A stretch of 64,000 nt of DNA from Capsulimonadaceae bacterium. Lineage in GTDB: Bacteria > Armatimonadota > Armatimonadia > Armatimonadales > Capsulimonadaceae. Shown in pieces: positions 2,674-36,974 of the stretch (its first letter is position 1; the number at the start of each line of letters is the position of its first letter). The position numbers were made by a program, and so were the translations under genes. The notes beneath the pieces were generated by a model. That model worked only from the letters and a program-made list of their open reading frames with translations. It ran no database searches and had not been told where the DNA came from. The stretch spans positions 2,624,001-2,688,000 of the forward strand of contig OZ244065.1 of NCBI GenBank assembly GCA_965215505.1. The letters are read 5' to 3'.

Positions 2674-3360
2674 ATGCCCCCGAACCAGCCCGACCCCACC
2701 CGACCGGAGCCTGCCGTCTGGCCGGAAGCCCCCGACGCCTGGCCTCGCATGGCCGACGCTCTGGCGATGGAGGCGCGGCGCATCGGCCCGCGCGTCGTTT
2801 TCCTGGGCGACTCGATCACGCAGGGCTGGGGCGGCGAGGGCCGGGCCGAATGGGAAACCCGCTTCGCGCCTCTGGGCGCGGCAAACCTGGGCATCGGCGG
2901 GGACCGGACGCAGAACATCTTGTGGCGTATCGCGCACGGCGCGCTGGACGGCCTGCGCCCGGAACTCGTCGTGCTGAAGATCGGCGTCAACAATTTATGG
3001 GCGGAGGTGCAGGAGTGCGGCACGGACCAAGTCGCGAACGGCGTGGCGGCCTGCGCCGCCGCCATTCGTGCCGAATGCCCCGATGCCAGGCTGCTTGTCC
3101 TGGGCATCCTGCCGACGCAGGCCGCGCCTGACAACCCGCTGCGCGCCGTCGTCCGCGCCGTCAACGCCCGCAGCGCCGCGCTCGTGTCCGCGATGGGCGG
3201 CCGGGTCAATTTCGCCGACATCGGCGCGGCGTTCCTGGAGCCGGACGGGCGGATCTCCACAGACATCATGCCGGACGGCTGCCACCTCTCGCCGGGCGGC
3301 TACGCCCTCTTCGCCGACGCCCTGGAGCCTCTGGTCCGGGGACTGCTGAACTCACGCTAG
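2674..3360 (+). CDS. SGNH/GDSL esterase (PAF-acetylhydrolase-like)
   Basis: FLGDSITQ, GIGGDRT, IGVNN, DGCHL blocks; GGAG RBS before ATG 2674. Confidence 0.9.
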   Translation: MPPNQPDPTRPEPAVWPEAPDAWPRMADALAMEARRIGPRVVFLGDSITQGWGGEGRAEWETRFAPLGAANLGIGGDRTQNILWRIAHGALDGLRPELVVLKIGVNNLWAEVQECGTDQVANGVAACAAAIRAECPDARLLVLGILPTQAAPDNPLRAVVRAVNARSAALVSAMGGRVNFADIGAAFLEPDGRISTDIMPDGCHLSPGGYALFADALEPLVRGLLNSR

Positions 3361-3372
3361 GAGACACCGCTG

Positions 3373-4200
3373 TTGGAACCGAAGCACCCCACCCCTTTAG
3401 ACGACTTCCTATTTGACCTGAACGGCTACCTCATCCTGAGAAACGCCGTCGAGCCGGCCCTGGTGTCTGACCTGAACCGCGCGTTTGACGACTTCCCGCC
3501 GCTCCAGCCGATGGAGTGGTGGGGGAACACGCAGCGGCGCGACTATACCGCCGAAACCGGCTTCGAGCTGCACAACTGCGTCGAGGCCGGTGCCCCGTTC
3601 GAGGCGCTGATCGACCACCCCGGCTGGGTGAGCCATGTCCGGCGGTACTGCGGGGAGCAGGACTCCTACGTCGAGGGCCTGTTTATCGATGAAACCATCG
3701 CCTCCATCCGCCGGTCCGGGGGGCATCACCCCGTCCACTCGGGCGGCTACAAGGGCGCGCTGCGCGGGGCCTACCATTTCAAGGACGGCGAGTTCCGGTG
3801 CGGCCAGTGCAACGTCATCCTCGCCCTCACCGACATCGGGGAGGGCGACGGGCCGACGATGGTGGTCCCCGGCAGCCACAAGTCCAACTTCCCCCACCCG
3901 CTGGCGGGCGACTACGAGCGCGGCGACCGCATGGACGACCTGCCGGGCGCGGTCCCCGTCTACCTCAGCAAAGGCGACGCCGTGCTGTTCTGCGACGGCC
4001 TGATGCACGGCGGCAGCAGCCGGACTCGGGAGGGCGGCGAGCGGCGCGTCACGATCTACCGCTACGGGCCGGTCTGGGGCGCGACCCGCTTCGGCTATGA
4101 GTATTCCCCCGCCCTGCTTGCCCGGCTGACACCCGAGCGACGCCGCATCTTGCAGCCCGTGGTCCCTGCCCGACCGCCTGCCTCCCAAAAAAGCGCTTGA
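3373..4200 (+). CDS. Phytanoyl-CoA dioxygenase (PhyH)-family Fe(II)/2OG oxygenase
   Basis: NGYLILRNA, ALTD..DGPT.VVPGSHK, KGDAVLF..LMHG; TTG start with GGAG RBS. Confidence 0.85.
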   Translation: MEPKHPTPLDDFLFDLNGYLILRNAVEPALVSDLNRAFDDFPPLQPMEWWGNTQRRDYTAETGFELHNCVEAGAPFEALIDHPGWVSHVRRYCGEQDSYVEGLFIDETIASIRRSGGHHPVHSGGYKGALRGAYHFKDGEFRCGQCNVILALTDIGEGDGPTMVVPGSHKSNFPHPLAGDYERGDRMDDLPGAVPVYLSKGDAVLFCDGLMHGGSSRTREGGERRVTIYRYGPVWGATRFGYEYSPALLARLTPERRRILQPVVPARPPASQKSA

Positions 4201-4221
4201 CTTTTCGCCGGGCCTGTGTTA
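4186..4221 (+). repeat. Direct repeat copy 1, containing promoter TTGACT-N17-TACCAT
   Basis: 34/36 identical to 7556-7591; 27-bp perfect core GCTTGACTTTTCGCCGGGCCTGTGTTA. Confidence 0.9.
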
Positions 4222-4260
4222 CCATGGTAGCAGTCGCCACAAACAAGCCGGGTCGAAGTC

Positions 4261-6255
4261 GTGCCGCAAGGAAAATGTCATGTCGCCTTGTCCGCTGCCG
4301 TCCGCCGTGCCGCCCTGCTGTGTGTCTTTTTTGCTGCCACCTTCGCGTCCGGCACCATCCTCTCTCCACATGCTTCCGCGCAACAGCCCGGCGGCGGTGG
4401 ATCGCCGGGCGGTGGCAGCTCCCCCGACGGATCTGCCGCCGGCTGGGTCCCACAGCCCCGCCCCGGCGTGACCGATCCTCAGTCATACGGTGACTACGAC
4501 TGGACCGGCCTTGATGGCAGCGTCATCCGCACCCCCTTCACCGGATCATACCCGCCGGAGATTTACCACGACTACGGCGGCAGTGAAGGCTTCAGCACCG
4601 GCGGCAGCTACTTCATGGAGTACCCCTTCAACGGCACCGGCGGGACCGGCAATACGCTCGCCGAGGTCTACACCCAGTTCAGCGGGACGACCACCTACAA
4701 GTGGAAGTGGGTGCCGCCCAACAACGCGGCGGGCCAGCCCGACACAGCGAACTTCCCCGCCCCGACCTTGTTCACGCTTTACGACATGTATGCGACGCTC
4801 GGGACGCAGTTGTGGAGTCCGCCCTACAACGCGGGCTTGGCGGCTTCGGGGACCGTTTCGGATGGCGCTCCCGACAATTGGACTTCCTCGGTGTCTACGG
4901 TGCCGCAGGTAATCACGGATGTCTTCCCGCGCCAGATGGTGCTGCCCGGCTCGGCCCCGGACTCTGGAGGCGTTTCCTCGGTGGCGATGGCACTCTCGGG
5001 GAACCTTGACGTGACGGGGAAGCAGTCGGTGGTGGTGGGCGGGTACACGGGGACGGGTGCCATGTGCATCAGCGCGACGACCGTGAACGGCCAGGCCTAC
5101 CCCATCACGCTGGCCGCCCCCGACCCTCTGACCAACCCCCTGCTGGGTGATGGCACCAACCAGTATGTCTACGATACGGAGCAGCCTGACGGCTACCTTG
5201 CGGTCCCCGCCTCCGTAAGCGTCCCCGGCGCGGGAACCGCCGACACAGCCTTCCTCCTGCCGCACGTCGCGCTCTCCGTCGCCCCCGCCATGCAGACGGG
5301 GGCGCAGCCCTTCCAGTGGACGAACTCCGGCTCCCAGATGTACGTCTACACGTCGGGCAGCTATCCAAGCGGCACCAGCTACCCCTCGGCGGCCTTCGTC
5401 TACAAGGGCCTGCCGCCCAATAACAGCTACTTCGGCAACCACACCATGACCATGAAGGTAGACGGCACGGTTTCGCAGACGGCCAACTACCAGTTGTTTT
5501 TCAACGCCACCACTAACAACTATCCAGGGGCGTTAGAATATGATAATCAAGGTGCCCTGAGCTACACCGGAATCCCGGATTGGTACTTCTATTATAACCA
5601 AGTGTATCCCGCGCCTGGTGGCTACAAGATGGGAAAAAGTTCCGAATATAATCCTGACGCCAATACGATTGACATATCAGATGACGCTCACGGCGTCTAC
5701 ACAATGCGTATCTTTCACCTTAATTCTTCTACGAACAAGGTTGAATATCTCGGTTCTTTGTCACTGGCTGGGCTTCATACCTACATAGAAGTCATTGGGC
5801 ACGAGTTAGGGCACAAGTATGCGGCAAACCACAACATAGAAGTTTCTAACTCAACTGCATCTCACCCTGATCACGACAACGACGGTTTGGATGACAACTG
5901 GGAACTATTGAATGGTTTCGATCCTAATAAATCTGACACTACCGGGGCCTATGCCAACATACCTTCGACCGACGCAGACTTCGGAAAAGGTGATCGCGAG
6001 TGCGTTGCGGATATACAAGCTTTGGGGGCATTGTTAACGCCTACAGCATCGGGTACCGTCAAGAGCCTTTGGAAACAGGATTGGGCGAACGATGGCTCAC
6101 AGTGGGGTACATGGAATCAGCATACTCCAGCCCTAAATCCCTCTGCGCCTTATTGGCCCTGGTACTTCGCTTCATCGGTTAATGGAGCGAGAGCAGCCGA
6201 CCCACCTTCTGATGCATTGTCAAAACTAACTCAATTACCGAACAATGGTAACTGA
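4261..6255 (+). CDS. Secreted protein with C-terminal zincin-like HExxH motif and Ca-binding DxDxDG repeat
   Basis: Signal-peptide-like N-terminus (..PHASA|QQ); GHELGH; DHDNDGLDDNWE; 3' part visibly AT-richer; start codon uncertain. Confidence 0.65.
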   Translation: MPQGKCHVALSAAVRRAALLCVFFAATFASGTILSPHASAQQPGGGGSPGGGSSPDGSAAGWVPQPRPGVTDPQSYGDYDWTGLDGSVIRTPFTGSYPPEIYHDYGGSEGFSTGGSYFMEYPFNGTGGTGNTLAEVYTQFSGTTTYKWKWVPPNNAAGQPDTANFPAPTLFTLYDMYATLGTQLWSPPYNAGLAASGTVSDGAPDNWTSSVSTVPQVITDVFPRQMVLPGSAPDSGGVSSVAMALSGNLDVTGKQSVVVGGYTGTGAMCISATTVNGQAYPITLAAPDPLTNPLLGDGTNQYVYDTEQPDGYLAVPASVSVPGAGTADTAFLLPHVALSVAPAMQTGAQPFQWTNSGSQMYVYTSGSYPSGTSYPSAAFVYKGLPPNNSYFGNHTMTMKVDGTVSQTANYQLFFNATTNNYPGALEYDNQGALSYTGIPDWYFYYNQVYPAPGGYKMGKSSEYNPDANTIDISDDAHGVYTMRIFHLNSSTNKVEYLGSLSLAGLHTYIEVIGHELGHKYAANHNIEVSNSTASHPDHDNDGLDDNWELLNGFDPNKSDTTGAYANIPSTDADFGKGDRECVADIQALGALLTPTASGTVKSLWKQDWANDGSQWGTWNQHTPALNPSAPYWPWYFASSVNGARAADPPSDALSKLTQLPNNGN

Positions 6256-27794: not shown

Positions 27795-29057
27795 ATGATC
27801 TACTCGTATCAAGCCAAAGACCGGACCGGGCGGACCGTCACCGGCTCGCTGGACGCGCCCGACGAGCGCCGTGCGGCCCAGGAGATCCGGGACATGGGGT
27901 ACTTCCCCATGCGCCTCGCGCCGCAGCAGGGCGGGGCGGCCACGCTCTCGCCCCAGAACGACCTGGCTTTCAACGGGTCGCCGCCGCGCCGCACCGTCGC
28001 GGGGGCCGCGCGGCAGGCGCCCCTCTCCGGCGGCTGGCTGCTGGCGCACCTCGTTTACCCCATCTGGTCCGGTGTCGGGCTGCGCGACCTGGCGCTGCTC
28101 TACCGGCAGTTCTCGGCCATGCTAAACGCGGGGGTGCCGATCTACCAGTGTCTCACCACGCTGACGCAGCAGACCGGGAACGCCCGCCTGCGGCGCTACC
28201 TGACCCGCATCAGTGCGCGCGTCTTGGAAGGGGCGATGCTGACCGAGGCGTTCGCCGAGTTCCCGTGGGTCTTCACCGACTTCCACCGGGCGATGATCGC
28301 GGCGGGCGAGCAGAGCGGGCGGCTGGACGTGATGATGTCCCGGCTGGCGTCCGCTCTGGAGCAGGAGTACGCGCTGCGGGCTGCGGTCAAGAAGGAGACT
28401 TGGTATCCGGCCGTAACGCTCCTGATGAGTTTTCTGCTCCCGCCCGTCGTGGACCTGATCATCCTGAAGGACGCGAAGCTTTATTACCAGGAGGCGATAC
28501 AGCCGCTGCTGATCTTCGGGGCCGTGGTCGTCGTCGGCTATGTCGTCACCCGGCTCCTATCGCAGTTCAAGGTGGCCTATGACTGGCTGATTGCCACGCT
28601 GCCGGGGATCGGCGGCGCGGTCCGGATGGTGGCTCTGGCACGGTTCGCCCGCGTGATCGCTTCGCTGTATGCGGCGGGTGTCTCGATCCCCGAGGCCCTG
28701 CGGGCGGCGGCGGCGGCGACCGGCAACGCCTACATGGAGCGCCGCATGGTCGCGGCGATCCCCGCCCTGCAAGGCGGGCACGGCATCGCTGAAGCGCTGG
28801 TCGCGACGCGCATCTTCCCGCCGATGGTCGTCTCCATGCTGGGGACCGGCGAGCAGACCGGCAGCCTGGACATGACGATGGACAAAGTCGCCGAGTATTA
28901 CGAGCAGGAGTCGGTGGTCCGCCTGCACCAACTGAGTGTGGCGCTCGGCGCGTTCGCCATGATCGTCGCCGGCATCCGGGTCGCCATCGTCGTCGGGAAC
29001 TTCTACACCGGCTACTTCAACAAGATGAACGATCAGGCGAACCCGGACGCCCCCTGA
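27795..29057 (+). CDS. pilC: Type II secretion F / PilC-family pilus platform protein
   Basis: YSYQAKD..G, MLNAGVP, AGEQSGRLD, GEQTGSLD..KVAEYYE. Confidence 0.88.
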   Translation: MIYSYQAKDRTGRTVTGSLDAPDERRAAQEIRDMGYFPMRLAPQQGGAATLSPQNDLAFNGSPPRRTVAGAARQAPLSGGWLLAHLVYPIWSGVGLRDLALLYRQFSAMLNAGVPIYQCLTTLTQQTGNARLRRYLTRISARVLEGAMLTEAFAEFPWVFTDFHRAMIAAGEQSGRLDVMMSRLASALEQEYALRAAVKKETWYPAVTLLMSFLLPPVVDLIILKDAKLYYQEAIQPLLIFGAVVVVGYVVTRLLSQFKVAYDWLIATLPGIGGAVRMVALARFARVIASLYAAGVSIPEALRAAAAATGNAYMERRMVAAIPALQGGHGIAEALVATRIFPPMVVSMLGTGEQTGSLDMTMDKVAEYYEQESVVRLHQLSVALGAFAMIVAGIRVAIVVGNFYTGYFNKMNDQANPDAP

Positions 29058-29203
29058 TCGGCACAGATAATGATCAAACGGCTCAGGACTGACGCGCGCC
29101 CTTATCATATGCTCTTTCGCGCGGACGTTCGGAAAGTGAGGGAAGAAAGTACGACCGTCTCAAGAAACCTGCATTCATATCATCCTGTTCGGAGCATATC
29201 ACG

Positions 29204-29980
29204 ATGAGCTTACAGCGAAATTATTACGAGGTCCTGGGCGTCCCGCAAGAGGCGACCACCGACCAGATCAAAAAGAAATACCGGGAACTGGCGCGTCGGT
29301 TCCATCCGGACGTGGTCCAGGATAAGGACCTGGGCCAGCGCGTCTTCTCGCAGATCAACCAGGCGTATCACATCCTGGGCGACAGGGACCTGCGCGCCAA
29401 GTATGATGCCACCCTGACAGCGGCAGCCGCGGCGGCCAGAGGGACGTCAGGCAACGGCTCCGCGCCCGCAGCGCAGGCCACCCGCCCCAATGGCGTCGCA
29501 CCCTATGCTAATGGGAACGGCACGACGCCCTATGGCAACGGTAATGGGGCGACACCTTACGGCAACGGGTCGGCTCCCGCGCCGCAGGCCGCGCCCGTCC
29601 CCCCGCAGAAGCTGGAGGCGATCGCGGGGCTTCTGAAACACGCGGACAACGCCATTATGGCCGGCAAGCCGGTCGAGGCGGGAGCGTTCTGCATGAAAGT
29701 GCTGGAGATTGATGCGCGCAACGTCCGCGCCCTGGACATCTTCGGGGACGCTCTGACCCAGCAGGGGAAGCGTGAGGATGCCGCCGTCCAGTACCGGAAG
29801 GCCCTCCAGGTTGCGCCCAGCCATTCCATTCAGGCCAAACTGAACCGACTGGTCCAGGCCGCCCCGTCCAACAGGACAAACCCGATCGGACAGCCCCCGC
29901 CGCCAAGCAAGCCCGATCCCGCGCCGAGCGGCGACAAAGCCGGCGGAGGCCTGCTCGGACGGTTCCTTGGGCGCAAATAG
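29204..29980 (+). CDS. DnaJ-domain protein with TPR-like C-terminus
   Basis: NYYEVLGV..FHPD..INQAY; NG..PYG repeats; TPR-like helices. Confidence 0.85.
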   Translation: MSLQRNYYEVLGVPQEATTDQIKKKYRELARRFHPDVVQDKDLGQRVFSQINQAYHILGDRDLRAKYDATLTAAAAAARGTSGNGSAPAAQATRPNGVAPYANGNGTTPYGNGNGATPYGNGSAPAPQAAPVPPQKLEAIAGLLKHADNAIMAGKPVEAGAFCMKVLEIDARNVRALDIFGDALTQQGKREDAAVQYRKALQVAPSHSIQAKLNRLVQAAPSNRTNPIGQPPPPSKPDPAPSGDKAGGGLLGRFLGRK

Positions 29981-30005
29981 TGGCAGGCTCTCAGAGCGGA
30001 CGCGA

Positions 30006-30037
30006 AAAACGCGGGAGGCATCAGCCTCCCGCGTTTT
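30006..30037. terminator. Bidirectional intrinsic terminator
   Basis: AAAACGCGGGAGGC-ATCA-GCCTCCCGCGTTTT between convergent genes. Confidence 0.85.
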
Positions 30038-30058
30038 TCTATGCCTGCCCTGGAGTCC

Positions 30059-31495
30059 CTAATCGCAGTGGCGCACGGCGGGGTCCAAAGGCAGCGTGTA
30101 CGGGAACAGGCCGAGGCGCAGGAGACGGGGCGGGCGCTCCGACATCTCGCGGGCGTAATCCTGGACTTCGTGCCGCCGCCCTCCCTGCATGTAAACGACA
30201 CGGATGATCGGTGTGGGCTGGGCCGTGCGGCAGAACAGCCGCAGCCCCTCGTGGAAGAAGTAGTCGGTATACTGCCACTGATCCGGCTGCCCCAGGCGCT
30301 CCAGGGCGGACGTCAATACCTCCCCCCAGTCTCCCCCGGCGATGTCCGGCAGGCCCTCGATGGACTCGATTCTGATGTAGCGCCCCGCCCCCAGCGGGCG
30401 CCAGCGCGCGGGCCAGAGCAGGTGGCTCCAGGGGTCGGGGCGCAGGTTGCTGAACATGGCGAAGCTGAAGTTGGTTTTGAGGCCGAGGTAGGGAGCCAGG
30501 CCATTCAGCAGAAAGGCCGACGTCAGCAGCAGCAGCAGCGCGCGCTGGTTCGGGCCGCCCCAGGCGAACGTGGCCCGCAGCGGCCCGGCGTGCAGCAGGG
30601 CCAGGCTGACGGCGAGGGCGGCGAGGAAGTAGACGCCGAAGAAGAGCTGGTGGCAGTAGGCGGGTACGCGGCGCTTGAAGCCGTAGCCCCCGAAGCGGTG
30701 GCCGATGTAGAGGCCGAGCAGGAGGTACAGGGCCATCCTGGTCCGGCTCAGGGCGAACGCCGAGGCCAGCAGGCGCGGCCAGTCGCCGGGCGCGACGAAC
30801 GCGGACAGCCCGGCGTACATGACGGCGGCGAAATGGACGTGAACCAGCAGCCCCAGAGGCAGGTGGAGCAGGACGGCCAGGAGGATGCCGAGCGGGCGGG
30901 TCGCCGGGAACAGGAACAGGAGCGGGATGATTCCTTCCAGGGCGAGGATGGCGTAGATGGAGAGGAAACCCTGAATTTTGAGCAGGCCGGGGTGGCGGAT
31001 GTTGACCCGGTACTCGAGGTACTCGCGGCCGAGATAGCTGCCGCAGCTCATGCAGGGCGACAGGTATTCCGGGTTCAGCTTGTGCAGGAAGGCCAGGGCA
31101 TAGGTCAGGCCGACCACGATTTGGACGCCGGACAGGAAGAAGGGCGTCGGCGATAGCCCGCGCCGCTCGGGGGCCTGGAACAGCAGATCCAGGCAAAGCA
31201 GCAGCCCCATGAACCAGGCCGCGACGAGGTGGTTGGACAGCCGGAGCGGGTAGGAGGCGATCAGCAGGGAGAGCGCCAGGAGCAGCAGAGGATACAGCTC
31301 CCATAGGGCGGGCCGGACGAGCAGGACCAGGCAAAGGCTAACCAGCCCGCCGTGCAGGGCGATCATCCCGCGCCGTGAGAGGTTCAGGCCCAGGGTGGGC
31401 AGGAAACAGGTCGTGAAATAGGCCCGGCCCTGGGTGAAGAGGCCCGTATTCTCGTGGAGGAGCAGGGCGAGGGCGAAGAGACGGACGAAGAGCAT
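30059..31495 (-). CDS. Multi-TM membrane protein, HTTM-like (horizontally transferred TM domain)
   Basis: SNH, YALAFLHKLNPEY, LLH, PYLGLKT.FSFAMFSNL pattern resembling HTTM-domain proteins. Confidence 0.6.
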   Translation of the reverse strand: MLFVRLFALALLLHENTGLFTQGRAYFTTCFLPTLGLNLSRRGMIALHGGLVSLCLVLLVRPALWELYPLLLLALSLLIASYPLRLSNHLVAAWFMGLLLCLDLLFQAPERRGLSPTPFFLSGVQIVVGLTYALAFLHKLNPEYLSPCMSCGSYLGREYLEYRVNIRHPGLLKIQGFLSIYAILALEGIIPLLFLFPATRPLGILLAVLLHLPLGLLVHVHFAAVMYAGLSAFVAPGDWPRLLASAFALSRTRMALYLLLGLYIGHRFGGYGFKRRVPAYCHQLFFGVYFLAALAVSLALLHAGPLRATFAWGGPNQRALLLLLTSAFLLNGLAPYLGLKTNFSFAMFSNLRPDPWSHLLWPARWRPLGAGRYIRIESIEGLPDIAGGDWGEVLTSALERLGQPDQWQYTDYFFHEGLRLFCRTAQPTPIIRVVYMQGGRRHEVQDYAREMSERPPRLLRLGLFPYTLPLDPAVRHCD

Positions 31496-31514
31496 CGTTG
31501 AAGTACACGATCCG

Positions 31515-32258
31515 TTAGAGTACGCGGCGGGGCAAGCGCGGCAGGCCGGGCTGATTCGAGACTATGCGGAGCGCGAAACGGCCCGCGCTCCGCAGCACGA
31601 GGCAGAGCCGCTCGGTCACGCGGGCACACCGGAACAGGATCGCCGCTCCCCTGCTGTAGCGCGTCCCGACCTGCGCGCGCACATGAGCGTCGGCCTCGAC
31701 GGTCGTCATGGCAAGCCCCGCCCGGTACAAGCGCGGCGTGGTCATCGCGACGTATTCACTGGCGATGCACAGCATCTGGGCGTCGGCGGGGATGTCCTTC
31801 CCGTGACGCCCGAAGGGGTAGCCGCTGCCGTCAAGATACTCGTGATGATACCGCACGGCGTCGGCGGCGGGACTGAGTACGGGGATAGCATCCAGGATGG
31901 CCGCGCCGACCCGGACGTAGTCGCGCAGGACGAAGCGGTCAGCGGGGCCGGGTGGACAGGCGGGGCTGTTCAGCAGACCGTAGGGGACGCTCACCTTGCC
32001 GATCCCGTGCAGGAGGGCGGCATATTCCAGGGTGCGCGTCCGAGCGAAGCCCATGCCGCGCCAGCGAGCCATCAGCACCACATAGCGCGCCGTCTTCTCG
32101 GCGTGGCCGAGCAGGTGCGGCTCGCGCGCCTCGACGGCGCGGGCGATGGCGATGAATGTCTGCCGGTAGGAGTGGCGGATGCGCCACGGCAGGTAAAAAA
32201 AGATGGCGAGCAGAGCGGAGGTGAAGGCCACGGCGGCCACGATGTCGAACAGCTTCAT
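31515..32258 (-). CDS. HD-GYP-domain protein, degenerate (HD to HG), one TM helix
   Basis: EARE..GH, LLHGIGK, HHEYLDGSGYP. Confidence 0.85.
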   Translation of the reverse strand: MKLFDIVAAVAFTSALLAIFFYLPWRIRHSYRQTFIAIARAVEAREPHLLGHAEKTARYVVLMARWRGMGFARTRTLEYAALLHGIGKVSVPYGLLNSPACPPGPADRFVLRDYVRVGAAILDAIPVLSPAADAVRYHHEYLDGSGYPFGRHGKDIPADAQMLCIASEYVAMTTPRLYRAGLAMTTVEADAHVRAQVGTRYSRGAAILFRCARVTERLCLVLRSAGRFALRIVSNQPGLPRLPRRVL

Positions 32259-32267
32259 GGGAAGGCT

Positions 32268-33818
32268 CTAACCTCCCATCGCCGCGGCCATCGCACCCGA
32301 GTGCGGCGGCACGGCCCAGAGCGAGTCGTCGGCGAGGCCCGGCTTGGGTGCGGGCTGCTGCCCGCTCTCTTCCAGCCGTCTCTCGCGCTGAAGGATGGTG
32401 ATGAAGACCTCCACGACCTGCGCGTGGAACTGTGTCCCGGCATGGCGGCGCAGCTCGGCGATGGCGGCCTCCTGCGTCATCGGCTGTCGGTAGGGCCGCT
32501 GGTCTTCCTTGGCCGGGCCACCCACCATGGCGTCGAAGGCATCCACAACGGAGATGATCATGGACTCGACCGGAATCTCGTCTTCCGCCAGGCCGTCCGG
32601 GTAGCCCTTGCCGTCGGGCCGCTCGTGGTGGTGGCGTATCCAGTGTCCGACCCGGTCCATCACGCTCATCTGGATGACGAGGTCCGCGCCAGTGACCGGG
32701 TGCAGGCGGATCATCGCCCAGTCGTCCTCCGTCAGTTTGCCCACCTTATTCAGCACGCGGTCGTCTACGGCGACCTTGCCGATGTCGTGCAGGATGGCGG
32801 CGTCCTCGATGTGCTGCATGGAGGAGGCGGGCAGTTCCATGTCCTCGGCGATGCGCTTGGCCCAGTGCGCGACTCGGTGCAAGTGCCCGTGCGTGTACGG
32901 GTGCGCCTCCTGCATGATGCGCCCCAGCAGATCCACCCCCTGCCTGTAGGCCGCCAGCGTCCGCTCGTGGGTCACCGCCGTCATCCGCAGGGCGTAGACC
33001 GGCACGATGATGAAGCCGATGCCCAGCCACTGGTTCTGGTCGTAGAGCATCGCGGTCAGGAGGCCGACGGGAGACATGAAAACGGCGCTTGAGAGCATCC
33101 AGCGCACGTTGTCATGCCAGATGATGTCCCAGCGCTTCCCCTGATAAGTGCTGACCAGAGTTGTGGTGATCAGCGTATTGACGATGAAGGCGAGCAGAGC
33201 GCAGAGGGGCAGCGCGAGACAGACACGCCAGTCCGGTGTTTCCCCAAGTCGAACACCGTTTTTAGAGAAACCCAGACGCTCTATCATCACATAAAGGAGC
33301 GCACTGCCGCCAAGCGAGATCACCTGTGTGGATATGTTAGGGATATAATACTTGATCTGGAACCGACGAGAGCGGGGGAGGCCGACGGACCCGCTCGCAA
33401 GCACCGAGACAGCGGCGGCGAGTACGACGGCAGTGGCCCCGTAAAGTCCGGCCATTGAAAAAAGGATGGGGATGACCGGGTAGGTGAACATCTTGCTGCC
33501 CGGCAGGCGTGCGGGCAGCAGACTGACGACAATGGCGAGCGCGGTCAGCACAGCCACGTTCGGTAGGACGCCCGGTGAGAGGGGGCTGTTCCAAACACAG
33601 AACAGAGCGACGAGCAGCGCCCCGCCGCCAAGCCAACGTCGCAAATAGGCGTAAGATTCCCGCGAAGGCTGGCCCAGCGGGGAGTCCGTCGTTTCCGGCT
33701 GTGGTTGTGCGATGGGCGAAGGCACTGACATGAAAGATACAGCTATTCCTGCGGCTAACGAACGCCGTATTTCACGGGGCGGAGGGGCTTCCGGGTGAAT
33801 CTCGGCGGGACGCGCCAT
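32268..33818 (-). CDS. Membrane-bound HD-GYP phosphodiesterase with multi-TM sensor domain
   Basis: About 7 TM helices then PYTHGH, ILHDIGK, HHERPDGKGYPDG, VVDAFDAM..RPYR; start 33818 or 33731. Confidence 0.9.
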   Translation of the reverse strand: MARPAEIHPEAPPPREIRRSLAAGIAVSFMSVPSPIAQPQPETTDSPLGQPSRESYAYLRRWLGGGALLVALFCVWNSPLSPGVLPNVAVLTALAIVVSLLPARLPGSKMFTYPVIPILFSMAGLYGATAVVLAAAVSVLASGSVGLPRSRRFQIKYYIPNISTQVISLGGSALLYVMIERLGFSKNGVRLGETPDWRVCLALPLCALLAFIVNTLITTTLVSTYQGKRWDIIWHDNVRWMLSSAVFMSPVGLLTAMLYDQNQWLGIGFIIVPVYALRMTAVTHERTLAAYRQGVDLLGRIMQEAHPYTHGHLHRVAHWAKRIAEDMELPASSMQHIEDAAILHDIGKVAVDDRVLNKVGKLTEDDWAMIRLHPVTGADLVIQMSVMDRVGHWIRHHHERPDGKGYPDGLAEDEIPVESMIISVVDAFDAMVGGPAKEDQRPYRQPMTQEAAIAELRRHAGTQFHAQVVEVFITILQRERRLEESGQQPAPKPGLADDSLWAVPPHSGAMAAAMGG

Positions 33819-33836
33819 CTTCCTAAGATTTTATAA

Positions 33837-34124
33837 GGGCTGCTGGAGAAGAAAGGACATAACTCGCTCGAAGGTTAATCAGGCCACTGGCGCATGAACA
33901 AGCCGACAGTCGCCTGCAATTTATGATTGCAGGTATGTGTGAGCTAGTCCCAAGGCCAATGCACGATGACGCCGCAGCCGGTGATGGCGGTGGTTACGGT
34001 CTTGATGATGTGAGTGAGCTTCTTCAAGTTAGTATCCAGATTTGTCACGGACGTGCCGATCTCTCGGACATCGTTCCGTCTCCGCTCGTGAGGCCCCTCG
34101 GGCCTCGTTCGCCTCCAGCAGCCC
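33837..34124 (-). other. Putative structured leader/RNA closed by a perfect 12-bp inverted repeat
   Basis: GGGCTGCTGGAG (33837-33848) vs CTCCAGCAGCCC (34113-34124); internal hairpins 34090-34106 and 33913-33933. Confidence 0.5.
33944..34027 (-). CDS. Putative 27-aa peptide MKKLTHIIKTVTTAITGCGVIVHWPWD
   Basis: TTG start preceded by TGGAT, host-like C-ending codons, basic N-terminus, Trp-rich end, downstream hairpin 33913-33933; alternative GTG start 34048. Confidence 0.55.
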   Translation of the reverse strand: MKKLTHIIKTVTTAITGCGVIVHWPWD

Positions 34125-34184
34125 AAACCGTATTCATTATTCCATTGTCACAGTGAAAATCACAGGGATTTTTTGTAGATTTTC

Positions 34185-34886
34185 CTAGAACTCGTCCTCC
34201 ATGAATGCCAGGCTCACGCGCCGGTTGACCGCGTCCAGCGTGGCATTGACGACGGCCTTCCAGACATCGTGGCGGACCAGAGCGGAGCCGGTCAGAAGCT
34301 CCTCGCCTTTGGGGGACGTCAGGGCACTGACAAGGACCGTCACCGCCTTACGACCGGCCAGCGGGACCTCGGTCTGCAAGTCTTCCACCACCATGGTCCC
34401 GTCCTGGTCGTGTGCGTCCTCGACGGCCCGGATCGCCGCCGTGGCGATCAGGCGCATCTGATTGTAGGAGGAGGCGTGGCCGATCGCGATGCCGGTAAAA
34501 AGGGCGTCCTCCCGCTTGAGGTGGACGATGGCTTCGCCGCGACTGCCGGTGACGGTGAGTGAGACGTCGGCGAAGCGCAGGCGGGGCAGCCCGGCCGTGC
34601 TGCCGCCGGCCAGGGCTGCGCGGCCCTGAGTCTGCGCGATGCTGATTTTCTTGTAGTCGAGTGCGATGTCCAGGTGTGCGCGCAGTGCCGATTCGATGTC
34701 CCGCGCGATCTGCTTGGGGGCGCGCTTGGGGTTGACCAGCACATGCAGCTCATCGATGTGGCCCGACGGCCCCAGGACGGCCCGCGTGGAGACGATGTCC
34801 TTGAGCTGACGCACGACGTCTTCGACCTGTTCGGCGGAAACGTAGCGGCGCGAGGTGGTCGCGAGGTCTCCGGGCGGCATATCCAA
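34185..34886 (-). CDS. Conserved hypothetical protein (ELHVL..PKQIARDIESAL family)
   Basis: AAGGAG RBS; motifs LHVL..RAPKQIARDIES..KKISIAQ and LLTGSALV..AVVNATLDAVNRR. Confidence 0.75.
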   Translation of the reverse strand: MDMPPGDLATTSRRYVSAEQVEDVVRQLKDIVSTRAVLGPSGHIDELHVLVNPKRAPKQIARDIESALRAHLDIALDYKKISIAQTQGRAALAGGSTAGLPRLRFADVSLTVTGSRGEAIVHLKREDALFTGIAIGHASSYNQMRLIATAAIRAVEDAHDQDGTMVVEDLQTEVPLAGRKAVTVLVSALTSPKGEELLTGSALVRHDVWKAVVNATLDAVNRRVSLAFMEDEF

Positions 34887-35028
34887 AATGGGGCGCTCCT
34901 TAAAACTGCTCAGGATACGAAGGGACAGTAAAGTGAAGGGACGTTAAAGTGGCCGAACAGCCTGCACTTCTATTGTAACACGCATTGCGCCATTTCAGGC
35001 GGGACTTGTATGACAAGGAAAATTATTT

Positions 35029-35805
35029 TTACAGGCAGAGCGCGATCCCGACTGCGCCCAGGGTGCAGAGGGCGTTGACAACGTCGTTGTTGACGCCCCG
35101 CAGGCCACGGAGCGGCGGCCCCGGCTGGGGCCGCTCGGTGAACAGACCGGGTCGGAGCGGGTCGGGCCAGCGGGCCTGCACGGTCGCCCCGAGCAGGCTG
35201 TCCAGCAGTGACCCGGCCAGCCCCGCTGCGGTCACCACGCCCCAGCCTGTCCCGCCACCCGCGAACAGCCCGAGGAGGGCGGCCCCGGCCAGCGCGGCCA
35301 GCGTCCCCGGCAGGCTCACCGCACCCGAGGTGCCCGGCGGGGCGGGGCGTGCCGTCCGCAGGTCGTAAGGGCGTCCGCCGAGGGCGGACCCGATCTCCGT
35401 CGCCCAGGTGTCGGCGTTGGCGGCGGCAAGGGCGGCCAGGAACAGCAGGTGCGCGTGTCCCGCGCCGGCCTTCGGGACCGCAGCCGGCAGAAGGGCGCAC
35501 AGCGCGGCCACGCCGCCGTTCGCCAGCACCTGCCCGGCGTCGCGCCGCCCGCCCTTCTCGTAGCCCAGCCGCTCCTTCGTGCCGCGCCGCCAGCGGCTCA
35601 GGGCGGTGGAGGTGCCGAAGAACGTCAGCAGGGCCGCGGCCCAAGCCCAGCCGCCGACCCCGAAGATGACCGCCCCGACGCCCCAGGCCGCTAGAGCGCC
35701 GCTCCGCGTCAGCGCCCCCGCCCGGTAGGCGAGGGCCGCGACGGCGGCGGCGAGGAGGAGGCCGAGGAGCATCTGAGCGGGCAAGGATTGATGAAGAGGG
35801 GGCAT
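35029..35805 (-). CDS. DUF92 (TMEM19-like) membrane protein
   Basis: RDAGQVLANG, ANADTWATEIG, GTSGAVS..G, DSLLGATVQ, NNDVVN. Confidence 0.9.
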   Translation of the reverse strand: MPPLHQSLPAQMLLGLLLAAAVAALAYRAGALTRSGALAAWGVGAVIFGVGGWAWAAALLTFFGTSTALSRWRRGTKERLGYEKGGRRDAGQVLANGGVAALCALLPAAVPKAGAGHAHLLFLAALAAANADTWATEIGSALGGRPYDLRTARPAPPGTSGAVSLPGTLAALAGAALLGLFAGGGTGWGVVTAAGLAGSLLDSLLGATVQARWPDPLRPGLFTERPQPGPPLRGLRGVNNDVVNALCTLGAVGIALCL

Positions 35806-35827
35806 GGCAGTTCCCCGGCTTTGGATG

Positions 35828-36021
35828 GACACGGGGCTGAACCCCCGTGCTTTAGCCTTGCAAGCCCCCGCCTGCGCGGGCGCAGCAAGATAAAGAGGGC
35901 GCAGCAAGATAAAGAGGGCGCGGCAAGATAAAGAGGGCGCGGCAAGCAGCGCCCCTACCTCTCTTATGCCCGCGAAGGCGGGAGTTTGCTTTACCGAAGC
36001 ACGGGGGTTCAGCCCTGTGTC
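35828..36021. repeat. Composite palindromic element: 25-bp terminal IR, 19-bp tandem array, GTAG-type REP
   Basis: GACACGGGGCTGAACCCCCGTGCTT vs 35997-36021 (24/25); GGGCGCRGCAAGATAAAGA x3+ at 35878-35946; REP ending CGCCCCTAC at 35958. Confidence 0.85.
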
Positions 36022-36024
36022 TCC

Positions 36025-36615
36025 TCACTTGCGCGAGACATACGGGCTGCCCGCCACATAGTACCGCAGGGGCAGGTCCACGCCCTGCGTGATGCCGATG
36101 CGGGTCGTCGTGACCATCTCGAACGGCGGGTACTCGCAGGGCACCACCAGCAGCTCACCGGCCGGGTCGGTCAGGTCCGCGTTATTATGCGCCAGCCGGG
36201 TCAGGGCCAATGCCTGTGCCAATTTGCCCGGCCCGTTTGTGAGCTGCCGCGTCTCCGCCATACCGCCTCGGTTCAGGCGCATCGCCTCGACGCCCTCGAC
36301 CGGCTCCAGAGCGCGGATCAGGACCGCCTCCGCCGTGCCTTCGGGCGCGCAGACGAGGTTGAGCATCATGTGGAGGCCGTAGGTGAAGTAGACGTAGGCA
36401 TGACCCGGCGGCCCGAACATCGCGCTGTTGCGCGGCGTCCGCCCCCGGTAGGCGTGGCAGGCCGGGTCGTCCTTTAGGTACGCCTCGGTTTCTACGATAA
36501 TGCCCGACAGAGTCTCGCCCGTGGGAAGGCGGCGCGTCACGGTCTGTCCAAGCAGCTTCTGCGCCGCCGCCCGCGTGTCTTGCAGATAAAACTCACGCGG
36601 GAGCGGGGCTACCAC
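36025..36615 (-). CDS. DNA-3-methyladenine glycosylase (MPG/Aag family)
   Basis: IVETEAY..DPACHA, MFGPPGHAYVY..YG.H, AVLIRALEP, NGPGKL, RIGI. Confidence 0.93.
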   Translation of the reverse strand: MVAPLPREFYLQDTRAAAQKLLGQTVTRRLPTGETLSGIIVETEAYLKDDPACHAYRGRTPRNSAMFGPPGHAYVYFTYGLHMMLNLVCAPEGTAEAVLIRALEPVEGVEAMRLNRGGMAETRQLTNGPGKLAQALALTRLAHNNADLTDPAGELLVVPCEYPPFEMVTTTRIGITQGVDLPLRYYVAGSPYVSRK

Positions 36616-36974
36616 GGCGACTCGATCTCCGCCCCGTCTTCCTCGGCGGCGGGCGTGGCGGCGACCAGCTCCGGTACGGCAGTGGGCGGGGCGGCCTTCA
36701 CCGCCTCTTCGGCTTTCAGCCTTTCGTAGAGGGCGCACGTCCCCGTCGCAAGTATCTCCTGCGTCTTGCCGACGATGGCCTCCCCGAAGCCGGAGATTTT
36801 CTTCAGCTCGCCCCGCGCATTGATGTCGGCGGCCGGCTCACGGAGATTCTCCAGAGTGCGGACGGCGTTCCGATAGGCGCGCACCTTGAACGGGTTCTCA
36901 CCCTGCCCTTCCAATATGTTCGCGATCTGCTCAAAAACGTCCGCGACTTCGGCGTTCGTGGGTGTGTGGTCCAT
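36609..36974 (-). CDS. Stand-alone DNA polymerase X/beta N-terminal HhH (8-kDa lyase) domain
   Basis: NAEVA..F..IA..LE..GENPFKVRAYRNA..KKISGFGEAIVGKTQEILATG; no polymerase domain. Confidence 0.85.
   Translation of the reverse strand: MDHTPTNAEVADVFEQIANILEGQGENPFKVRAYRNAVRTLENLREPAADINARGELKKISGFGEAIVGKTQEILATGTCALYERLKAEEAVKAAPPTAVPELVAATPAAEEDGAEIESPW

Follow-up and report, generated by a model that had tools for sequence, protein, structure and literature searches.

A conserved microprotein gene beside a membrane HD-GYP phosphodiesterase as candidate centre of a cyclic di-GMP turnover module in Capsulimonadaceae and other bacteria

Sensors and pumps of bacterial membranes can be modulated by very small membrane proteins, as in the pairs MgrB-PhoQ, SafA-PhoQ, KdpF-KdpABC and AcrZ-AcrB. 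A locus in a 64,000-nt stretch of a Capsulimonadaceae genome (the window; contig OZ244065.1, positions 2,624,001 to 2,688,000, GenBank assembly GCA_965215505.1) may offer a parallel in cyclic di-GMP (c-di-GMP) turnover. Five co-oriented minus-strand units lie here, each correctly placed in a preliminary description of this DNA: a gene for a 233-aa protein, a small open reading frame (ORF), two genes for HD-GYP proteins (516 and 247 aa) and a gene for a 478-aa membrane protein (Table 1). The gaps of 9 nt between the 516-aa and 247-aa genes and of 19 nt between the 247-aa and 478-aa genes had also been read correctly, and the 366-nt spacer between the 233-aa gene and the 516-aa HD-GYP gene contains the small ORF. 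The arrangement is far beyond chance, being kept in 20/20 related loci and across phyla, and there seems to be an even chance that it represents a c-di-GMP turnover module built around a hidden microprotein that directly modulates the neighbouring HD-GYP sensor.

The microprotein resembles MgrB-type modulators in its size (<50 residues), in being basically one helix, in being encoded beside, or co-regulated with, a polytopic partner and in the binding within the membrane proposed for it. Those modulators target a kinase or a pump, whereas the candidate target here is an HD-GYP phosphodiesterase, and the sequences are unrelated; unlike them, the microprotein is encoded behind a conserved leader RNA and always together with the 233-aa protein, and the variant in the window is only weakly hydrophobic. 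The candidate target resembles MASE9-HD-GYP proteins (T. maritima TM1467, S. venezuelae HdgA), in which a polytopic N-terminal domain likewise precedes an HD_5 domain carrying HD, HHE and GYP motifs. Galperin and Chou (10.1101/2021.11.05.467447) argue that MASE9 binds its ligand within the membrane, and the relevant portion of their account describes no partner microprotein, leader RNA or 233-aa companion. In the corresponding part of PMC13724677, the CD1980.2 family of C. difficile is described as proteins of ~8 kDa on blots with four predicted helices, encoded behind class I c-di-GMP riboswitches and acting on sporulation. As portrayed there, that family is comparable in being small, long unannotated, membrane-associated (for the microprotein, by prediction) and wired to c-di-GMP through a structured leader RNA, and different in that the microprotein has 25–32 residues, a leader with no Rfam match and a tie to an HD-GYP gene. 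No published description of the microprotein, the leader or the 233-aa family was found in the literature on MASE9 and HD-GYP small proteins.

The preliminary description had compared the locus with Agr and Com quorum sensing. Both Agr (AgrD/AgrB/AgrC) and ComX/ComQ/ComP do have a short peptide gene adjoining a multi-transmembrane receptor gene, and the peptides of the window's genus could be likened to Agr propeptides in their conserved Cys, amphipathic N-terminal half and acidic C-terminus. However, Cys and Trp are not conserved family-wide, the output of the candidate receptor would be c-di-GMP hydrolysis, and no AgrB, ComQ or histidine kinase was found in the eight genes scanned with Pfam across window 27795–36738. 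There is no AgrB-family peptidase among these genes, the 478-aa protein folding like GGCX/HTTM and not like AgrB; the adjacent multi-transmembrane protein ends in HD_5 instead of HisKA/HATPase; and no polyprenyl synthase domain, as expected of a ComQ-type isoprenyl transferase, is present among the scanned neighbours. The Agr/Com analogy is therefore not supported, while peptide input to c-di-GMP turnover, the wider proposal of the preliminary description, is a reasonable reading given the synteny. A different class of peptide systems, SHP/Rgg, ComS/ComR and Phr/Rap, has precursors of 17–45 residues with a basic-hydrophobic N-terminus and an active, often Trp-rich C-terminal tail, encoded beside the receptor gene; the receptors are cytoplasmic RRNPP proteins reached after re-import. 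In contrast, the microprotein gene adjoins that of a membrane enzyme and has no linked exporter, Eep-type protease or Opp system.

An HD-GYP orthologue was identified in 23/24 other genomes of the same family (the sole miss, G010, is 75% complete), and the order 233-aa gene, spacer, HD-GYP gene, second HD-GYP gene holds in all 20 loci fetched from the window's genus. Every one of these 20 spacers contains an intact ORF of 25–32 codons (start ATG in 13, TTG in 7), with an AGG(U)/GGA element 8–12 nt 5′ of it, and all length differences are in frame. Mean pairwise differences at the three codon positions are 0.375, 0.257 and 0.482, the third position varying most, which is a substitution pattern of the coding type. 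As for the alternative frames, +1 is open in 0/20 loci and +2 in 17/20, so that a bare open frame means little at the G+C content of this locus. In its own genome, a microprotein profile matched only the window ORF at E≤0.1 (8.6e-8). Judged by this sequence evidence, the 27-codon ORF is a genuine, unannotated gene, its start codon being TTG and not ATG. Exact-sequence searches with 20 microproteins (17 with an ATG start) found none in a collection of 15 billion predicted proteins, and nine microproteins compared with Pfam and NCBIfam gave chance-level matches only. Four contigs in a biocrust metatranscriptome (83–193 nt, depth up to 50), derived from a close relative (one 90–95% alike, three <90%), cover only window 33853–34098; the variant they represent keeps the ORF frame, with two synonymous changes and one codon change to a residue found in relatives. 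None of the four lies in the two flanking genes, which is not evidence that those genes are silent. Such RNA-library contigs over the microprotein region are a hint of expression and cannot prove transcription.

The 233-aa protein has 464 homologues, all recorded as ‘hypothetical’ and without a family name. Scanning one genome per species with it gave 431 loci confirmed by tblastn, of which the best 79 were analysed, spanning Armatimonadota (including Capsulimonadaceae), Bacillota, Chloroflexota, Actinomycetota and three others. A same-strand HD-GYP gene lies downstream of the 233-aa gene in 70/79 loci; six of the nine without one have just 145–1332 nt of contig left past the 233-aa gene, and the other three (L077, L080 and L093) have >4 kb of downstream sequence and no HD-GYP gene. 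The spacer, 165–670 nt long across loci, holds a small ORF of one recognisable family, ending 34–70 nt before the HD-GYP start in most Bacillota loci. A profile of 26 small ORFs, which were picked by eye and extracted from the loci by position, was run over the 28,993 six-frame stop-to-stop segments of the 79 loci and gave 67 matches at ≥15 bits, one per locus and all in the spacer, with 0 outside it; 41 of the 53 loci that had not contributed to the seed were matched. The 12 loci missed include a divergent homologue (L030, 7.9 bits) and two variants with a Gly-Ala...Pro-Pro-Pro-like pattern (L043 and L049), the remainder being two decayed loci (L031 and L075), four contig ends and the three without HD-GYP.

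A six-frame search of 151 whole Armatimonadota genomes with the microprotein profile provided a test not selected through the 233-aa gene. Nineteen genomes each gave exactly one match at E≤1e-3, and all 19 matches are 130–290 nt downstream of an independently found 233-aa gene, on the same strand; a full-length 233-aa gene is present in 39/151 genomes. Genus g26, missed by the profile, has a divergent ORF of the same build at the same place. The synteny comparison proposed in the preliminary description was thereby carried out, and it tied the small ORF to a membrane HD-GYP in four phyla. Since the same trio of 233-aa protein, predicted microprotein and membrane HD-GYP recurs in four phyla, the tiny protein is probably the partner or signal of the HD-GYP. 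Cultured strains carrying the module include Geosporobacter subterraneus DSM 17957, G. ferrireducens IRF9, Wukongibacter, Phosphitispora and Thermohalobacter berrensis.

Several loci show additional features. In L031 (6279–6500) the leader is present (89 bits), while the microprotein ORF and approximately the first 220 HD-GYP codons are missing through deletion or an assembly fault. In L075 (5501–8115), from one Armatimonadota metagenome-assembled genome, the small ORF is cut short and the 233-aa and HD-GYP genes are spread over several frames; the module appears to be decaying, unless the record has sequencing errors. In Geosporobacter (L078 2684–3774 and 4743–5273), genes for a PilZ-domain protein and a ribosome hibernation factor, together with a raiA RNA and a class I c-di-GMP riboswitch, all lie ≤3 kb upstream of the 233-aa gene; the coordinates L085 2935–3437 and L099 344–587 belong to the same raiA/c-di-GMP observation, and a raiA RNA is also found upstream in one Coriobacteriia locus. 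Two DUF5317 membrane-protein genes (L078 7571–8182 and 8346–8939) follow the Geosporobacter HD-GYP gene, the first overlapping its end.

The microproteins align collinearly across phyla. One or two basic N-terminal residues are followed by ~15 hydrophobic residues and a small-(Cys/Ser/Gly/Ala)-Gly-Ala motif, with Gly in at least 90% of rows; past this motif, after 1–4 further residues, stands an aromatic one (usually Trp), often with Pro-Pro(-Pro) behind it. Trp occurs within the last 12 residues in 51/67 peptides and is replaced in 6/20 genus peptides. Thr, Ser and Lys are abundant in the helix of the genus peptides; Cys is present in 21/21 Capsulimonadaceae-type peptides vs 10/46 others, and an acidic C-terminus was seen only in the window's lineage. 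Outside Capsulimonadaceae the microprotein looks like a hydrophobic single helix, an appearance that suits a partner inside the membrane no less than secretion. Two other readings of the peptide, a lasso peptide and TnaC-type stalling, were dropped: there are no maturation genes, the acidic residue is at the wrong distance for a lasso ring, and the tail past Pro varies from 1 to 7 residues.

Upstream of the ORF, a near-invariant box (GACAATGGAATAAT core; invariant or nearly so in 20/20 genus loci) is followed by ~105 nt of structured RNA that had escaped the preliminary description. Its structure was derived from one of the aligned sequences and then counted on a plain MAFFT alignment; single-sequence folds and our own pair counts were used because RNAalifold on plain MAFFT alignments missed obvious hairpins. 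The three-helix structure pairs 76.5% of cells, compared with 36–45% in slid controls, 17/32 pairs are changed on both sides and a covariation score as high as the one observed occurs in 0/500 shuffles. Within the outer helix, the AGG(U)/GGA ribosome site of the microprotein gene is paired. A covariance model of this Capsulimonadaceae leader (R1) finds one copy in the 6.18-Mb genome, at window 34024–34131 (84.9 bits), and gives 22 matches at E≤3e-13 in related loci; it fails in other lineages, where the best score is 15.7 bits at the right place in L041 and there is one off-target match with E 0.13. Rfam 15 yielded no minus-strand match at E≤10 in window 33900–34190, nor at E≤1 in 29000–36500, and no match at gathering score in the gap of 12 loci from other phyla. 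Nothing emerged when 33700–34300 was scanned in a simple way for promoters and terminators, with no canonical sigma-70 match at the GACAATGGAATAAT box, and the 3′ region folds no better than shuffles (z -0.82).

Leaders of the other Armatimonadota carry invariant ACCCGAGCGRAGCGG and CGAAAGGGGUUGA blocks that are able to pair. They also have a hairpin in which 5/6 stem pairs are changed on both sides, 91% of cells pair vs 15–57% in slid controls, and AGCG is kept in the loop. The corresponding model (R2) finds the right place in Bacillota loci (L090, 1e-9; L096, 1.3e-5; L091, 1.1e-4; L095, 0.005; L076, 0.008), with no off-target match below E 0.01 in 867 kb. R2 does not match the window or its genus, and homology of the two leader types is for this reason a visual impression from short shared motifs.

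The 233-aa protein, the module's most constant companion and the product of a single-copy gene, received too little weight in the preliminary description. It has no Pfam or NCBIfam match (at E≤10 Pfam shows only two chance-level ones), and a PDB sequence search with its profile gave nothing below E 0.17. The AlphaFold (AF2) model, with a predicted local distance difference test score (pLDDT) of 83.3, has a ferredoxin-like N-domain, which reaches Z ~8–9 with many unrelated proteins, and a (beta-beta-beta-alpha)x2 C-domain. For the latter the LeuA/citramalate-synthase regulatory fold was matched by Foldseek (3f6g_A, E 2e-4, TMt 0.61) and by VIA (3f6g_B, Z 8.8, root-mean-square deviation 3.1, 106 residues aligned), where a Z near 8 can reflect a common arrangement. 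LeuA_dimer (PF08502) shares the (beta-beta-beta-alpha)x2 fold; the C-domain nevertheless has no Pfam match and is only about 14–17% identical in structural alignments, and LeuA_dimer sits on a TIM-barrel synthase, whereas the 233-aa-type domain is joined to a ferredoxin-like domain or to CBS-GGDEF. It is also found at the C-terminus of 430–450-residue CBS-CBS-GGDEF proteins (hhalign probability 98%, E 2.4e-13, 36% identity) and would therefore belong to c-di-GMP signalling. Proteins of this architecture are encoded at L101 1180–2523 (-) and L102 733–2031 (+), and in genus g26 a CBS-CBS-GGDEF cyclase gene lies ~5 kb from the module.

In the 516-aa protein (Pfam HD_5, 5.2e-33), LHDIGK and HHHE...GYP motifs are found, and the HD-GYP domain is intact, as first described, with HD, HHE and GYP all present. 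The ~7 transmembrane segments originally proposed were partly checked, a crude hydropathy scan showing five strong ones. Residues 119–282 pass the Pfam cut-off for MASE9 (PF20972) marginally (29.6 bits vs 24.3); among orthologues, MASE9 scores are 17.7 in L024 and 38.5 in L102, with no match in L078 and L046. Of the module HD-GYPs, 58/59 have the HD (HDxGK) motif and 45/59 match the HHE..GYP pattern. In several non-Capsulimonadaceae Armatimonadota (e.g. L046 6614–8167) the HD-GYP has an insertion past the HD domain with a sub-threshold RUBY_RBDX match (22.3 bits vs cut-off 26.5), and the HHE...GYP pattern is unmatched there. The 247-aa protein (Pfam HD_5, 2e-29) has one transmembrane segment (residues 3–21) and HG in place of HD, both as first reported. 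Because of this change it is probably inactive, and conservation of LHG[IL]GK in 13/13 Capsulimonadaceae-type loci where the gene was read suggests a selected non-catalytic role.

For the 478-aa protein the label ‘HTTM-like’ was borne out in part. No Pfam family was found at E≤10 by hmmscan, the PF05090 profile included, although PF05090 is on record for 5/71 homologues. The 15 best PDB matches of its AlphaFold model (pLDDT 90.7) are all vitamin-K gamma-carboxylase (GGCX; E 1e-5 to 1.5e-2, TMq 0.47–0.54, probability 1.00), and the first unrelated match below them stands at E 0.09 with probability 0.23; a protein-atlas look-up gave leads only (LMF1, HTTM and MauE at 0.92–0.94). The gene is intact after the module in at most 4/23 related (Capsulimonadaceae-type) loci fetched (L021, L025 and L031 among them), is split over three frames in L022 and is a remnant in L042. 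It is thus a lineage-specific accessory outside the conserved module, and the role of membrane processing enzyme assigned to its product in the preliminary description is not supported. In L102 a PMT_2-type glycosyltransferase gene (2826–4442 (-)) occupies its slot after the second HD-GYP gene, and in Geosporobacter the slot is filled by the two DUF5317 genes. Elsewhere in the window, at 35828–36021 between DUF92 and methylpurine glycosylase genes, a 54-nt inverted repeat, 81% complementary, surrounds tandem 19-nt units and causes a spurious match to microRNA family RF04198 (33 bits vs gathering score 150).

Table 1 Features of the microprotein locus in the window, in order of transcription.
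Feature	Position in window	Strand	Basis or description
Gene for 233-aa protein, unnamed family	34185..34886	-	N-terminal ferredoxin-like and C-terminal (beta-beta-beta-alpha)x2 domain; predicted cytoplasmic
Near-invariant box, GACAATGGAATAAT core	34136..34152	-	Upstream of leader; candidate promoter/operator
Structured leader RNA	34024..34131	-	Outer helix, 7-bp hairpin, long bulged hairpin, conserved AGCGRAG junction
Microprotein gene, 27 codons, TTG start, TAG stop	33944..34027	-	Conserved ORF; profile matches
8-bp hairpin, no U tract, 11 nt past microprotein stop	33913..33933	-	Folding; kept in part of the genus
CCCTTATAA-type element just 5′ of HD-GYP start	33828..33840	-	Kept in most genus loci; conjecturally, a possible -10 element of a second promoter
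516-aa polytopic HD-GYP phosphodiesterase, MASE9-like N-terminus	32268..33818	-	Pfam HD_5 and MASE9; HD, HHE and GYP intact
247-aa one-transmembrane degenerate HD-GYP	31515..32258	-	Pfam HD_5 and motif reading; HD changed to HG, HHE and GYP kept
478-aa HTTM/vitamin-K gamma-carboxylase-like membrane protein	30059..31495	-	Fold match to GGCX

If the microprotein directly modulates the neighbouring sensor, opening of the leader RNA would allow its synthesis, and it would then associate with the membrane domain of the adjacent HD-GYP and set the phosphodiesterase activity, in a manner like that of MgrB on PhoQ. The small-Gly-Ala motif could serve as a helix-packing face, with the aromatic/Pro tail at the membrane surface. 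More speculatively, the 233-aa protein might sense a ligand and have as its target either the enzyme or, via the repeated AGCG motifs, the leader RNA, and the degenerate HG paralogue may be a non-catalytic regulatory subunit. Co-folding of peptide and HD-GYP, as proposed in the preliminary description, was run on the orthologous pair of L024 because the window peptide has <30 residues; the pair consists of a 32-aa peptide and a 503-aa HD-GYP 62% identical to that of the window. It scored 0.60, compared with 0.01 for the best of three controls, with runs agreeing in at least 73% of contacts and partner pLDDT at least 52. The mark applied was reached by 58/80 solved complexes and 2/110 mismatched pairs. 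Both of these mismatches, but only 7/80 solved complexes, did so with scores of 0.60 or lower, and these calibration counts hold only roughly since alignments of our own were used.

A number of points weigh against this mechanism. The co-fold gives weak support for binding, specifies no interface and concerns an orthologous pair, and the partnership as a whole is inferred by computation. The best 15-residue hydropathy has a median of 1.13 in Capsulimonadaceae (range 0.78–1.76, n=21) vs 2.19 outside them (n=46), so that membrane insertion is doubtful in the window's own lineage, where the peptide is much less hydrophobic. The genus peptides combine a conserved N-terminal half with a hypervariable tail past Gly-Cys-Gly, as pheromone precursors typically do as well. 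The distance from the ORF to the HD-GYP start in Capsulimonadaceae is 109–309 nt in 14/15 loci read (26 nt in L022, where the chosen enzyme start is doubtful), and the microprotein may there be on a separate transcript; adjacency alone may reflect co-regulation. The 233-aa protein as a ligand-sensing third partner is a more speculative element, resting on synteny, fold and domain fusion. Finally, the profiles contain sequences of the same species, which makes the sensitivity counts partly circular, unlike the specificity counts.

The chief competing explanation is a secreted or processed peptide signal of Phr/SHP/XIP style, not of the Agr/Com type, which is held to be unlikely but deserves consideration. 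The N-terminus would direct export, small-Gly-Ala would be a signal-peptidase site and a Trp tail of 5–10 residues would be sensed outside by the HD-GYP membrane domain. By eye, the basic N-terminus, a 12–15-residue hydrophobic stretch and small residues at -3/-1 do fit a signal peptide, the gene adjoins that of a membrane sensor, and both the frequent Trp in the last 12 residues (51/67 peptides) and the hypervariable genus tail behind a conserved N-terminal half agree with such a signal. However, conservation of the module extends to no export or processing gene: no AgrB, ComQ or ABC exporter is among the neighbours scanned, the HTTM-like gene is intact in at most 4/23 related loci fetched, and the peptides of the window's lineage have no signal-like hydrophobic core. 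A related proposal, a precursor like those of ribosomally synthesised and post-translationally modified peptides (RiPPs), to be modified in the window's sub-lineage by the HTTM/GGCX-like membrane enzyme, is very improbable. GGCX modifies peptides recognised via a propeptide, according to the titles of the matched PDB entries, the 478-aa gene is 19 nt past the second HD-GYP gene and the conserved N-terminal part could be a ‘leader’ before the variable tail, but most loci that have kept the peptide lack the enzyme gene, the peptides of loci carrying this gene contain no Glu, and homologues of the enzyme are found in unrelated phyla.

The leader RNA raises the further question of whether the peptide needs a partner at all, as translation of a cis-acting leader ORF might merely remodel the leader and control expression of the downstream HD-GYP. 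In favour of this, the ribosome site of the ORF is paired in a conserved structured leader, with the ORF inside or behind that RNA, and in most Bacillota loci the ORF ends 34–70 nt before the HD-GYP start. In Capsulimonadaceae, in contrast, the distance is usually 109–309 nt with a conserved element between, and a purely cis-acting ORF is less likely because the physicochemical pattern of the peptide is kept across phyla where the DNA no longer aligns. A peptide of 25–32 residues is still inside the ribosomal tunnel, whereby force-sensing arrest (SecM/MifM) is ruled out. Altogether, a cis-acting role without a partner is considered improbable. Least probable of all is that a type I toxin or some other small hydrophobic protein, unrelated to the HD-GYP gene, is simply encoded next to it, or that a dual-function small RNA is: a short hydrophobic ORF, a structured 5′ leader occluding its ribosome site and short abundant contigs in an RNA library would all be in keeping with it, yet the gene is single-copy in the genome and keeps its place between one and the same pair of genes in four phyla, whereas toxin loci are mobile and multi-copy.

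Direct modulation of the HD-GYP sensor by the microprotein could, in a bolder and distinctly more tentative form, be part of a three-part c-di-GMP control unit present in at least four phyla. In this unit the microprotein would be the long-sought in-membrane input of MASE9-type HD-GYPs, a new AGCG-rich leader would gate its translation, and the LeuA-regulatory-like domain, free or fused to GGDEF, would sense a small ligand and act on the RNA or the enzyme. Whatever its exact action, the family shows that gene callers miss proteins present in hundreds of genomes (431 companion-gene loci), and c-di-GMP biology gains from it a small-protein layer as well as candidates for a new regulatory RNA and a new signalling domain. 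As the module occurs in cultured strains, experiments are feasible, and the microprotein is a concrete, testable candidate for the stimulus of HD-GYP sensors embedded in the membrane, the MASE9 proteins among them.

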